Shown here: positions 8,872 through 41,417 of the stretch, piece after piece
How positions within the stretch are numbered: position 1 is the first letter of the stretch
How the letters are laid out: each line of letters starts with the position of its first letter
NCBI GenBank assembly: GCA_963666285.1
Contig: OY762711.1
From: Sedimentisphaerales bacterium
GTDB lineage: Bacteria; Planctomycetota; Phycisphaerae; Sedimentisphaerales; SM23-30
Reading direction: 5' to 3' (one strand)
DNA length: 64,000 nt
Translations under genes and position numbers: made by a program
The notes under the pieces: model-generated
Databases searched by the model: none
Told to the model about the DNA's origin: nothing
What the model saw: the letters and a program-made list of their open reading frames with translations, nothing else

Positions 8872-8957
<86 letters not shown>

Positions 8958-10512: not shown

Positions 10513-11910
10513 TTATTTACTGCCCAGTCTGGTCACCATATCAGGGCTTATCAGAAAATCAAACTGATCAGAGCTAAGCAGCCCTAACTCGATTACTACT
10601 TCTCGAATAGTCTTCGATTCTCTCTTAGACTGCAATGCGACCTCCTGGGCCTTCTGATATCCAATCTCTGAAACCAACGCTGTCACAACCGCAGATGATG
10701 TCTCTATGTGCTCGCGGCATTTTTCCTCATCTACCTCTATTCCAGAAACACAAAATTCTCTGAAAATCCGGCATGACTCTGTCAGAAGAGTTAAACTTTC
10801 AAGCAGCGAATCGGCTATCAGCGGCATAAATGCGTTCAACTCCAGATTACCCATCGAGGCCGCTTGTGCTATTGATTGGTCATGTGCAAATACCCTCATG
10901 GCTGCCTGCGATACCGCCTCCGGTATTACCGGATTTACCTTGCCCGGCATAACTGATGAGCCGGCCTGTCTTTCCGGCAAAGATATCTCACCTATACCGG
11001 CATCCGGGCCAGATGACATAAACCGCAAATCTGACGCTACTTTCAGCAAATTGGACGCACAGGCCTTCAATATACCGGATACCTCGACGAACACATCCGC
11101 ATTCTGGGTAACATCTATCATATTCTCTCCACGCGCCAAACCTAAACCGGTAATGGTACGCAATTCTTCTATCACATTGAATATATACTGACGCGGGGCC
11201 GACAATCCCGTACCAATTGCCGTACCGCCGATATTAACCACTCTTAACCGCTCCTCACATTTATATATTCGCCATCGATCACGGCCAAAAGTTTCCGCAT
11301 ATGCACTCATCTCACGACCTAATGTCGTCAATACCGCATCCTGCATCTGGGTGCGCCCAACCTTCACTATATTTGCGGTACGCTTTTCCAGCATCTGAAA
11401 TTCTTCAACTAGCTTTGCCACCTGCTCCTCCAATAGTCGCAGCTTCCAGATACACGCCACTTTTAACGCTGTCGGATACGTATCATTAGTTGACTGATGC
11501 AGGTTAACATGGTCAAGCGGGTCAATAATATCATAACTGCCCGGTTTCTCACCTAAAATCTGCAGCGCCCGATTTGCTATTACCTCGTTGACATTCATAT
11601 TCGTTGAGGTACCTGCCCCTCCCTGCAAGGCATCTACTATGATATGTTCGTTTAATACCCCAGAAAGCATCTCCTCACAAGCCGAACATATAGCCGACAA
11701 AATCTTTTCATCCAGCTTGCCCAGCTGACCGTTCACCCTGGCCGCCGCAAGCTTTACTGCTCCATATGCAGATATAAATTTGGCATCTATCATTTTACCG
11801 GTCAAAGGAAAATTCTCAACTGCCCGGACAGTATATATACCCCACAAAGCTTCCGCTGGAACCTGCATTTGACCTAAAAGATCTTTTTCTATTCGATATT
11901 TCTCTGACAT
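10513..11910 (-). CDS. aspA: Aspartate ammonia-lyase
   Basis: QGGAGTSTNMNVNEV, GRTQMQDAV, GSSVMPGKVNPVIPE (fumarase/aspartase signature). Confidence 0.92.
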   Translation of the reverse strand: MSEKYRIEKDLLGQMQVPAEALWGIYTVRAVENFPLTGKMIDAKFISAYGAVKLAAARVNGQLGKLDEKILSAICSACEEMLSGVLNEHIIVDALQGGAGTSTNMNVNEVIANRALQILGEKPGSYDIIDPLDHVNLHQSTNDTYPTALKVACIWKLRLLEEQVAKLVEEFQMLEKRTANIVKVGRTQMQDAVLTTLGREMSAYAETFGRDRWRIYKCEERLRVVNIGGTAIGTGLSAPRQYIFNVIEELRTITGLGLARGENMIDVTQNADVFVEVSGILKACASNLLKVASDLRFMSSGPDAGIGEISLPERQAGSSVMPGKVNPVIPEAVSQAAMRVFAHDQSIAQAASMGNLELNAFMPLIADSLLESLTLLTESCRIFREFCVSGIEVDEEKCREHIETSSAVVTALVSEIGYQKAQEVALQSKRESKTIREVVIELGLLSSDQFDFLISPDMVTRLGSK

Positions 11911-11927
11911 GTCTATACCTGACTGAC

Positions 11928-12980
11928 TTAATTCCTGGCCACAAATTTCACTGAATCACCACGCCCTTGACCAACTTTTCGGCCGATAGATTCAATTCGC
12001 TTCCTGATTTGTTCGTGAAAATGTTCCGCATCTTCATTTATACACGACTTGGCCGGATATATCTCATATAATTTTCGATATTCAAGAGGAGTAATATTTG
12101 GCATTATTACATTACCGCCGCAGTTTAAACCCTGCTCTCGACCGCTATCCGAAAGAGTTGACAGGGCCGTTGTGCTTGGCAGGTTTGTTTGCGGACACAA
12201 TATCCGCGTTAAGGCTAATACCTTACATGTCATCTCCTGAATGTTTGGTACCTGCTCACTGTCATCTAAAACAATTATATCTTCACCTCTACCCAGCGAA
12301 GTATCCGGATGAGCAATATAGGGTCCGACTCCTATCATATGCAAACCAAGCTCTTTAAATGCAAGGATATCATTTGCCAGGATATCATAACTCTGACCCG
12401 GGATACCCACCATTACGCCACTTCCGGTTTCATAGCCGATGGACTTTAGCTGTTTCAATACTTCAAAACGATCTACATGCGTCTGACCCTTTACCGGCGG
12501 ATGTATATTCTTATACAACTCCGGATCTGATGTCTCAAATCTTAGCAGATATCGGTCTGCCCCGGCTTTATGCCAGACAACAAATTCATCTTCACTTCTC
12601 TCACCCAGGCTCAACGTAATCGCCAGTTCACTGTTATCCTTCACCCATCTGATAAAACCTTCAATCATTTCCTTGGTCAAACCGTAATCTTCACCTGCCT
12701 GTACCACAATTGTACCATATCCAAATTTAACTGCCAGCTTGACACATTCCTGCATCTCGTCAACAGTCATACGATACCTGGGTATTTTTTGCCCCTGTAA
12801 CGCATTTATCCCACAATATCGACACTGACGTACACATATGTTAGACGCTTCAATCAAGCCCCGCAGATGAACCTCATCACCTACATTATCTTTGCGAACC
12901 TGGTCTGCCTTTTCCCATAACTCTTTGAGTTTAGCGGGATCGGTTTCTTTTAGCCATTGCAGAATTTCATTTTTATTCAT
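11928..12980 (-). CDS. hydE: [FeFe]-hydrogenase H-cluster radical SAM maturase HydE
   Basis: LRGLIEASNICVRQCRYC, ADRYLLRFET, GxNVIMPNITP, C-terminal YEIYP. Confidence 0.9.
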   Translation of the reverse strand: MNKNEILQWLKETDPAKLKELWEKADQVRKDNVGDEVHLRGLIEASNICVRQCRYCGINALQGQKIPRYRMTVDEMQECVKLAVKFGYGTIVVQAGEDYGLTKEMIEGFIRWVKDNSELAITLSLGERSEDEFVVWHKAGADRYLLRFETSDPELYKNIHPPVKGQTHVDRFEVLKQLKSIGYETGSGVMVGIPGQSYDILANDILAFKELGLHMIGVGPYIAHPDTSLGRGEDIIVLDDSEQVPNIQEMTCKVLALTRILCPQTNLPSTTALSTLSDSGREQGLNCGGNVIMPNITPLEYRKLYEIYPAKSCINEDAEHFHEQIRKRIESIGRKVGQGRGDSVKFVARN

Positions 12981-39304: not shown

Positions 39305-39333
39305 TTGACTGCAAATATTTAATGTATTATAAT
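39305..39333 (+). promoter_or_regulatory. Sigma70 promoter of the TM1266-hydG unit
   Basis: TTGACT-N17-TATAAT. Confidence 0.75.
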
Positions 39334-39392
39334 TGATTAACGCAAACAGCTAAGGATTTCCTTTAATTCGTGTTATTGATTTCCTGAACTGA

Positions 39393-39512
39393 ATGCAAAA
39401 GTTTAATTTTTTATTTGTACTGATACATAAGGGTACGCCCGAATGTGAAGGCAATAGAGTTATAGACAATTGCTTTACAGCATGTTGCTGTTTTGAAATA
39501 CTAAAACCTTAA
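39393..39512 (+). CDS. Putative Cys-rich leader peptide (39 aa)
   Basis: MQKFNFLFVLIHKGTPECEGNRVIDNCFTACCCFEILKP*; 5 Cys including TGT-TGC-TGT; stop codon inside the terminator 5' arm; no obvious SD. Confidence 0.55.
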   Translation: MQKFNFLFVLIHKGTPECEGNRVIDNCFTACCCFEILKP

Positions 39513-39538
39513 GCCTTCCCTGGTTCTAAGGTTTTTTT
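39503..39538 (+). terminator. Leader (attenuator-type) intrinsic terminator ending 6 nt before the TM1266 start
   Basis: AAAACCTTA-AGCC-ttccct-GGTT-c-TAAGGTTTTTTT. Confidence 0.75.
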
Positions 39539-39544
39539 ATTATC

Positions 39545-39805
39545 ATGGAAACACGAATTGCTGCTATTAGTATTATTGTTGAAAACCCGGAATCTGCCGA
39601 GAAAATCAATAAAATCCTTCACGACTATGGTGATTTTATTATTGGCAGGATGGGAATTCCATATCACAAAAGAGATCTGTCTATCATCACTGTTGTCCTG
39701 GATGCTCCCAGCGATGCAATTAGCGCACTTTCAGGAAAACTGGGTATGCTGCCCGACATTACAGTCAAAACAGCATATTCCAAATGCTTTTCCCAGGATG
39801 AGTAA
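39545..39805 (+). CDS. TM1266-family iron-only hydrogenase system regulator (ACT/NikR-C-like)
   Basis: METRIAAISIIVE...LH.Y...IIGRMGIPY...ISALSGKLG.LP; directly upstream of hydG. Confidence 0.9.
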   Translation: METRIAAISIIVENPESAEKINKILHDYGDFIIGRMGIPYHKRDLSIITVVLDAPSDAISALSGKLGMLPDITVKTAYSKCFSQDE

Positions 39806-39992
39806 ACTACCCCTCATTTTATATCAGCACAAATATAAGTGATTAGATACGCTGCAGAATAGGTACAAAACTACTGTTGCACGATGCTACCTGCAATTAA
39901 CCCTGCCCTGCAATACCCGGCCGAAAACAAAATGACGCAATTATTATTTACTGCGTCTGATTACTTATATTTTTTTTGAAAGGTTATGTACC

Positions 39993-41417
39993 ATGTATAA
40001 TGTCAACTCAAACGACTGTAATGAGTTTATCGACAATGATGAAGTCCTTCAATCTGTGGAATACGGTAAAAACACCGTATCTGATATGGCTGAAATTGAT
40101 AGAATTCTCAAAAAGGCCGGCAATAGAGAAGGTCTAACCCATCGTGAAGCAGCCGTATTACTGGCTGTTGAAGATGACAGCACTCTGGAAAAAATGTACC
40201 ATACTGCCAGGCAGGTTAAAGAAACTATATACGGCAAAAGAGTTGTGCTGTTTGCCCCTCTTTATCTATCCAGCTATTGCGTTAATGATTGCAAATATTG
40301 CGGCTACAAATGCTCAAATACTATCGGACGCCACCAGCTCACCCAGGATGAATTGCGTGAAGAAGTCAGGGCTTTAGAGGCTCTCGGACACAAACGACTA
40401 CTGCTTGAGGCCGGCGAAGATGACAAACGATGCCCGATCGAATACATTCTCGAATGTATTAAAACCATATACGATGAAAAGTTTGAAAACGGTAGTATTA
40501 GAAGAGTTAACGTAGATATTGCCGCTACCACGGTTGAAAACTACAAAAAACTCAAAGATGCCGCCATAGGTACTTATATTCTTTTCCAGGAAACTTACCA
40601 TAAGCCAACCTATGAAAGCATACACTCCGGCCCCAAACAAGACTACCAATGGCATACCGAAGCTATGGACCGCGCCATGACCGCCGGTATTGATGATGTC
40701 GGCATAGGACCTTTATATGGACTGTATGACTATCAGTACGAAACCGTTGCACTCCTCATGCACGCTGAACATCTCGAAGCTGCATTCGGCGTCGGCCCCC
40801 ATACTATCTCTTTCCCTAGACTCCTTCCCGCTGAAGGTGTCAACTATGACAATTTCCCGCACCTGGTTAATGACCGAAACTTCAAAAAACTCGTTGCCGT
40901 CATTCGCCTGGCTGTACCTTATACCGGGATGATCGTCTCGACTCGTGAAAGCGTGGAATTTCGCAGGGAACTGCTTGAGATTGGCGTTTCGCAGATGAGT
41001 GCCGGATCTTGTGTCGGTGTCGGCGGGTATGCCGAAAGATTGAAAATGGACCTCGACGGAGTTGAAGAAAAACCGCAATTTAATCTGGCAGACCATAGAA
41101 AACCGATTGAGGTTATCAAGGATCTCGTCAACCATGGCTACATTCCTAGCTACTGCACCGCATGCTACCGCGAAGGCAGAACCGGTGACAGGTTCATGCC
41201 GCTGGCTAAATCCGGTGCTATAGGCAATATATGCCTGCCCAACGCCCTGCTTACTTTCCAGGAATACCTGATGGACTATGCCGACGATGAACTGAAACTC
41301 GCCGGTCGGGAAATGATCGACCGGCAAATGCTGGAAATTCCTAAACCTGCCAGCAGAGATAAAGCTGCACGCTTTCTTAACGATATCAGAAACGGCCAGA
41401 GAGACCTGAGATTCTAG
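39993..41417 (+). CDS. hydG: [FeFe]-hydrogenase H-cluster radical SAM maturase HydG
   Basis: FAPLYLSSYCVNDCKYC, GPHTISFPR, C-terminal CxxC-x22-C (CTAC...NIC) that distinguishes HydG from ThiH. Confidence 0.95.
   Translation: MYNVNSNDCNEFIDNDEVLQSVEYGKNTVSDMAEIDRILKKAGNREGLTHREAAVLLAVEDDSTLEKMYHTARQVKETIYGKRVVLFAPLYLSSYCVNDCKYCGYKCSNTIGRHQLTQDELREEVRALEALGHKRLLLEAGEDDKRCPIEYILECIKTIYDEKFENGSIRRVNVDIAATTVENYKKLKDAAIGTYILFQETYHKPTYESIHSGPKQDYQWHTEAMDRAMTAGIDDVGIGPLYGLYDYQYETVALLMHAEHLEAAFGVGPHTISFPRLLPAEGVNYDNFPHLVNDRNFKKLVAVIRLAVPYTGMIVSTRESVEFRRELLEIGVSQMSAGSCVGVGGYAERLKMDLDGVEEKPQFNLADHRKPIEVIKDLVNHGYIPSYCTACYREGRTGDRFMPLAKSGAIGNICLPNALLTFQEYLMDYADDELKLAGREMIDRQMLEIPKPASRDKAARFLNDIRNGQRDLRF

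Follow-up and report, generated by a model that had tools for sequence, protein, structure and literature searches.

A conserved attenuator RNA in front of TM1266 genes and a possible feedback role for TM1266 in hydrogenase maturation

How is transcription of the TM1266-hydG pair controlled in this planctomycete genome, and by what signal? The pair lies in a window of 64,000 nt (the whole stretch of DNA analysed, to which all positions refer), and both genes and their leader are on the plus strand. The first gene (39545-39805) encodes an 86-residue protein of the TM1266 family, with the NikR metal-binding/ACT fold (TIGR03959, 116.8 bits, cut-off 60.8; PF21699). The second (39993-41417) encodes a Clostridia-like radical-SAM maturase HydG, a second copy in this genome (TIGR03955, 679.9 bits, cut-off 312); against the ThiH model it scores 299, under the ThiH cut-off of 380. 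The gene identities assigned in the initial annotation are therefore confirmed. That annotation had also read the leader as an attenuator governed by a cysteine-rich leader peptide, and the two parts of this proposal fared differently.

The leader starts from a sigma-70-type promoter (39305-39333) that matches 11 of 12 consensus positions with a 17-nt spacer. It is the best of nine promoter-like sites in 1.5 kb, where shuffled sequences give 5.9. Transcription probably begins near 39340, which would make the leader about 205 nt long. An intrinsic terminator is predicted at 39503-39538 (-12.7 kcal/mol, 7 T), ending 6 nt ahead of the TM1266 start; it is weak and bulged, and it is absent from the output of a simple terminator scanner. 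Promoter and terminator had both been placed correctly by the initial annotation, as had every other feature for which it gave coordinates. A 5' hairpin (39342-39397, -12.9 kcal/mol) carries one half-site resembling those of the core hairpin described below, and the leader as a whole has a lower folding energy than all 200 of its shuffles (z -3.4). With Rfam 15 at gathering score, the sole match in the whole window was a tRNA (8872-8957, minus strand). Between 39000 and 40000, no cis-regulatory family (riboswitch, T-box or PyrR site) was retrieved at E-values up to 10, leaving no known riboswitch of relevance in the leader. No clear Shine-Dalgarno (SD) sequence precedes TM1266 in the window, no good Rex box lies near the promoter (the best has four mismatches) and the rest of the genome yielded no other strong copy of this leader. 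The 187-nt spacer between TM1266 and hydG (39806-39992) contains no match to the leader motif; it harbours a perfect 8-bp hairpin (39934-39957) that is terminator-like on the minus strand.

A search with the TM1266 of the window as query found no homologue in 60 relatives of this genome, 38 of which have HydG above the cut-off. The HydG of the window is 48% identical to the other HydG of the genome and 73-76% identical to some Bacillota-type loci, while identity to the best TM1266 relatives is 62-78%, the named ones among them being mostly of Clostridia type. The cassette thus looks as if it was acquired together with its leader, a reading drawn from sequence similarity and a poorly resolved tree. 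For this reason, the comparison drew on two collections; from each of them, the 80 best of about 600 TM1266 loci were taken, giving 160. Viral contigs provided one weak TM1266 locus. Elsewhere, the genome encodes a second HydG, HydE, HydF and hydrogenase-like genes. One hydE gene is present in the window (11928-12980, minus strand; TIGR03956, 317.8 bits), 27 kb from TM1266-hydG; this hydE is followed by a gene for a 465-residue protein (10513-11910, minus strand) that, by eye, has the look of an aspartase-family lyase. Another HydE-like gene is also encoded in the genome.

A hairpin some 35-40 nt long is common to the leaders; it is composed of a lower stem, a purine internal loop, a variable stem of 3-5 bp, a second purine loop and a top stem. 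In the window, this core, which the initial annotation had missed, spans 39415-39454 and scores 53.5 bits with RNA model R1, of which it is a seed member. Its lower stem pairs 39415-39421 with 39449-39454, its mid stem 39425-39428 with 39443-39446 and its top stem 39431-39433 with 39438-39440, one purine loop lying above the lower stem and the other above the mid stem. The conserved partner of 39447-39454 is thus located upstream, at 39415-39421. Both strands carry the same half-site (CYGA, 3-5 nt, RARG), making the core two-fold symmetric; the loop purines are invariant, and the stems are free to vary. Double-changed cells numbered 52 in the core versus 12.4 after shuffling, 12 versus 5.2 in a second alignment and 49 versus 14.4 in a mixed-type alignment (0/500 shuffles each time). 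These alignments were made with MAFFT and not fitted to structure, their seeds came from the motif search and related sequences inflate the shuffle test. In the alignments, 95-97% of core cells pair, compared with at most 58% in slid controls, and a structural descriptor, itself tuned on these leaders, matched 90 of 184 distinct leaders versus 1 of 1030 shuffled ones.

Further copies and variants of the core were observed. Several Clostridiales leaders (L211, L212, L214, L220 and L068) have a full second copy as their 5' hairpin, and eight related 5' hairpins show double changes in 5 of 11 pairs. The 5' hairpin of the window, out of register in that eight-hairpin alignment, appears homologous to the core by eye. 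In three other leaders (L229, L235 and L246) a symmetric 5' hairpin has, by eye, UU replacing the purine pair of each half-site. A core copy ends directly before the SD of hydG in 6 of 110 hydG upstream regions (L058, L065:1779-1821, L099:2067-2107, L107, L143 and L154), and the two of these printed in full show no terminator; such copies are likely translational operators. Known RNA classes were also considered. A kink-turn has, on its bulged strand, a three-base bulge that lies 5' of tandem G-A pairs. No such bulge occurs in the core, where the extra bases are on the other strand or absent, and an assignment to kink-turn or box C/D RNA was rejected. T-box, TPP, glycine, lysine and c-di-AMP riboswitches and the hammerhead were set aside because they gave no Rfam match or their defining motifs are absent.

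The 3' base of the core overlaps the 5' strand of an antiterminator (39447-39460), which pairs with 39505-39518 in the terminator 5' arm with a predicted probability of 0.995 in a transcript ending at 39522. The pairing between 39447-39452 and 39513-39518 that the initial annotation had pointed out is therefore real, and it is conserved. Across 79 distinct leaders, the 14-nt duplex between the hairpin 3' base and the terminator 5' arm averages -10.0 kcal/mol, versus -8.6 with permuted partners (0/10000 as good, a test inflated by related sequences) and -6.3 with shuffled strands, and several pair types occur at a single position. The segment to which it had assigned the sequestration of this strand (39469-39478) plays no such part, the pair 39449-39474 having a probability of 0.0 in the nascent-transcript ensemble. 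In the predicted folding pathway, the core is formed when the transcript reaches 39460 and the antiterminator dominates at 39520-39526. The full-length minimum combines core and terminator (-49.5 kcal/mol), and the forced ON form has -42.2 kcal/mol. A hairpin with a U-tract lies downstream of 88 out of 92 motif matches, a few of these calls being a neighbouring hairpin; in the window, the terminator arm departs from the consensus but has kept its pairing with the core. With a terminator and a conserved, exclusive antiterminator pairing, the attenuator half of the initial proposal stands. We are confident that the element is a real, widespread and uncatalogued attenuator RNA. Since the antiterminator displaces the core as the terminator arm emerges, the predicted default is read-through.

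Models R1 and R2 matched within 320 nt of the start in 90 of the 160 leaders, 54 of which were seeds. Among the 70 loci with no model match, 16 seem operon-internal, four have less than 150 nt upstream and several are visible variants. Across 117 scored Clostridiales genomes, R1 gave 23 matches, and all 22 new ones were directly before TM1266, which was followed by hydG in 20 cases and by a hydE-like gene in two. Of 114 Clostridiales genomes, 97 have a TM1266 that passes the cut-off; R1 matched 23 of 117 and R3 20 of 118. That many TM1266 genes have no detected motif is partly explained by divergent motif types and by filters that lose matches: of 17 missed leaders examined, 11 were picked up by a looser descriptor, and R3, built without the Clostridiales type-C and hydG-SD copies, under-detects them. 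In the 60 relatives lacking TM1266, R1 produced three matches of 21-22 bits in unrelated places, none of them before a hyd gene, and 29 hydG loci of TM1266-less relatives gave no credible match. Weak model matches in G020, G006, G039, G064 and G156, all inside or close to unrelated genes, are attributed to chance. The element and TM1266 are hence tightly linked (22 of 22 new matches before TM1266, none credible in 60 TM1266-less genomes). Linkage is not binding, and it could have arisen from co-inheritance of neighbouring DNA.

What could read such an element? Its small size, its symmetry, its tandem copies and its two modes of use point to a protein operator, and TM1266 is a candidate reader. 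The predicted model of the protein (pLDDT 93) has PDB 2nzc, a TM1266 relative with four chains in the solved structure, as its best fold match (Z 15.3, rmsd 0.9, 79 residues), followed by the C-terminal metal-binding domain of NikR (Z 12.9, rmsd 1.5 over 79 residues). Unlike NikR, the 86-residue TM1266 of the window has no ribbon-helix-helix domain or other DNA-binding domain; the name 'CopG family', applied in PMC6391272, therefore does not imply a DNA target for it. No known RNA-binding motif was detected either, and no residue separates 125 motif-linked TM1266 proteins from 48 motif-less ones, in a comparison limited by a rapidly built tree of poor resolution and by labels that kin have in common.

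The element is probably a protein-read attenuator with end-product feedback, TM1266 being its most likely reader, a view we hold with modest confidence. During leader synthesis, the core hairpin would fold first; the emerging 5' arm of the terminator would then strip away its 3' base to form the antiterminator, leaving read-through as the default. A factor clamping the core shut would let the terminator form and stop transcription of TM1266-hydG. That factor would most likely be TM1266, acting as a homo-oligomer on the two-fold symmetric hairpin once plentiful H-cluster diiron precursor is signalled. The conserved structure, the mutually exclusive pairings and the tight linkage to TM1266 are computed; we infer the repressive sign, the binding by TM1266 and the identity of the signal.

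A precedent exists in the pyr operon of Bacillus subtilis, where PyrR binds an anti-antiterminator hairpin that blocks the antiterminator, providing end-product feedback. As in that system, the anti-antiterminator hairpin lies upstream of the antiterminator, operators are repeated and the binder, here a presumed one, is the product of the operon's first gene. The differences are that the symmetric hairpin with two purine loops does not match the Rfam PyrR model, that its binder is only a candidate and that TM1266 has the NikR/ACT fold, not the phosphoribosyltransferase fold.

The genes under the switch point to its signal. After 90 motif-bearing TM1266 genes, the next gene is hydE-like in 45 cases, hydG in 21, another gene in 18 and unreadable in six. 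The 18 include nine genes similar to ECF S-components (seven with a Pfam match), three NMT1-like binding proteins, FecCD-type ABC genes, one NifH/NifD-like pair and hydF. In all seven available genomes with the order leader, TM1266 and ECF gene, [FeFe]-hydrogenase genes are present and HydG and HydF gave no match; these genomes, which may be incomplete, belong to one clade. The 13 further genomes with the ECF gene all have hydrogenase genes, none has HydF and none has HydG, so that 20 of the 20 checked ECF genomes carry [FeFe]-hydrogenase genes without HydG or HydF. In 111 genomes of the family (110 drawn at a completeness of at least 92%, plus the centre), the ECF gene occurs in 14 and HydG in 19, with no overlap (p 0.06); because only 17% of the family has HydG, this exclusion is weak and not significant alone. 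The ECF gene abuts that of the hydrogenase large subunit in 4 of 13 cases, in a fifth it is followed by a NuoF-like gene, a hydrogenase gene lying some 2.6 kb downstream, and the remaining eight have unrelated neighbours where examined. Members of this S-component family beside TM1266 or [FeFe]-hydrogenase genes are found at L038:2778-3320 and L285-L297. From this gene context, the family is a candidate importer of an H-cluster precursor.

TM1266 also heads FecCD uptake operons (L069, L100, L134, L156 and L166) and NMT1-like ones (L057, L116, L157 and L187). In the genomes of L069 and L100, HydF is present and HydG was not found. The L057 genome gave five matches to hydrogenases and none to HydG or HydF. 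At two loci (L135:2148-4619 and L180:2767-3519), a NifH-like gene directly follows TM1266, L135 having in addition a NifD/E-like gene and the leader RNA; all these Nif-like genes fall under the nitrogenase, CfbC and DPOR cut-offs.

Repressive control over synthesis together with uptake is the pattern of end-product-controlled vitamin and cofactor regulons. One repressive switch over both kinds of gene makes a late precursor of the H-cluster the more likely signal, as does the consideration that cells without HydEFG have no need of HydG substrates such as cysteine. The main rival to the precursor is iron, which could link hydEFG, FecCD and the NifH-like genes. Taken together, the gene neighbourhoods suggest that an H-cluster precursor both exerts feedback and is salvaged. 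In its full form, this proposal is tentative, and we put it forward as no better than possible: TM1266 would sense the precursor and shut its own leader, while bacteria without hydEFG would import it through the dedicated ECF S-component, and perhaps through NMT1-like or FecCD ABC transporters, encoded under the same switch or beside hydrogenase genes.

The same gene content would also suit a riboswitch, in which the hairpin or a hairpin pair binds Fe(II) or the H-cluster precursor directly and gates the same terminator, TM1266 being merely co-regulated. The layout of anti-antiterminator, antiterminator and terminator would be identical, the loop purines are invariant and, like vitamin riboswitches, the element precedes genes of both synthesis and uptake. 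In TPP, FMN and cobalamin riboswitch regulons with ECF or ABC salvage, one leader element likewise heads the synthesis genes in some genomes, and here the element heads ECF, NMT1-like and FecCD transporter genes where synthesis genes were not found. It differs from those riboswitches in being small, in having no Rfam match and in being tied to a protein gene. A single two-fold symmetric hairpin of only about 35-40 nt, in which no junction or pseudoknot was seen, argues against direct sensing, as does its absence before the hyd genes of TM1266-less relatives. The core element was not found beside the 13 ECF genes that lack TM1266 either, and we regard a riboswitch as unlikely.

Operator-like traits do not name the binder, and no RNA-specific residues were recognised in TM1266, so the hairpin might instead be bound by HydG, HydE, HydF or some host factor, TM1266 then being an accessory or uninvolved. 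However, seven genomes without a detected HydG or HydF keep the element together with TM1266, and the two occur together here in a lineage whose 60 searched relatives have neither, which makes another binder quite improbable. Decay is a further alternative: after transfer, the switch may have been reduced here to a fixed, leaky terminator. A second, apparently acquired hydG copy, a weak and bulged terminator and the lack of a clear SD before TM1266 would agree with this; the score of the core, two intact ORFs and a terminator arm that is off consensus but still core-pairing make it very unlikely.

There remains the cysteine peptide. The ORF itself is as described in the initial annotation (39393-39512, 39 codons, 5 Cys, three of them consecutive at 39483-39491), its stop codon (39510-39512) lies inside the terminator 5' arm, and cysteine is used by HydG according to published abstracts. 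In 5000 shuffles of the window leader, a run of three Cys arose in 0.4% and at least five Cys in 0.4%. In a separate shuffle count, however, three-residue runs of any kind appeared in 19%, and runs of a residue typical of attenuators in 6%. Trp-, his- and thr-type ribosome-mediated attenuators resemble this leader in their alternative terminator and antiterminator and in a short ORF that overlaps the leader in this one genome; they differ in having a conserved peptide, codon run and SD. We counted Cys codons in 84 distinct element-bearing leaders, including the window and omitting four matches without a detected terminator, leaders with less than 80 nt upstream and duplicates. Adjacent Cys codons occur in only one of them, the window itself (shuffles expect 6.1), and ORFs with at least three Cys in seven (shuffles expect 10.6). 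Of 79 leaders, 17 keep the homologous frame open all the way between core and terminator and 62 have it closed, and no Cys run is shared. The start codon of the ORF is within a stem, its Cys codons overlap paired RNA, it has no NCBIfam match and, as the initial annotation had cautioned, no SD precedes 39393; TM1266 likewise has no clear SD, and this host may not need one. The orthologous leaders therefore hold no conserved Cys-rich ORF, a finding by which the initial annotation itself would abandon the leader peptide, and we judge the ORF incidental. Although no close relative of the window leader was found, so that a recent, lineage-unique gain atop the conserved RNA is conceivable, gating of the terminator by ribosomes stalled at these Cys codons is highly improbable given that none of the 83 other leaders has adjacent Cys codons.

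The literature describes one other layer of control. Rex controls the TM1266-hydG operon, its site in C. bescii lying 181 bp before the start of 'CopG'-hydG according to a passage of PMC6391272, and Table 4 of PMC8457756 reports Rex control of the same two-gene unit. A site at that distance fits a long leader. Rex acts on DNA, at initiation, and the passages on it in these two papers do not mention a leader RNA. In our set, Rex-like boxes were found in 17 of 180 TM1266 leaders versus 26 of 1800 shuffles, often over the -10 element. Neither this RNA nor the uptake of an H-cluster precursor, or a transporter for it, is described in the titles and abstract openings surveyed, mostly of papers outside subscription journals. 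Term searches for the motif found nothing in the main text and supplement of PMC6429828, in PMC9431212, in one supplement of PMC8632094 or in the main texts of PMC11109978 and PMC5737381, whose supplements may include it. An attenuator for hydG thus appears to be undescribed, as the initial annotation had supposed.

As Rex is the only control of the TM1266-hydG operon found in the literature surveyed, the conserved attenuator adds a second layer. If TM1266 reads it, the attenuator suggests a concrete job for a protein annotated as a 'putative regulator' without a DNA-binding domain. If the signal is an importable H-cluster precursor, the finding would bear on how maturase-less anaerobes obtain an active hydrogenase, on hydrogen cross-feeding in the gut and on the engineering of hydrogenase maturation. 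The salvage proposal, if true, would give TM1266 a function and the leaders a new RNA operator, and it would explain the gut Oscillospiraceae that have hydrogenases without maturases.
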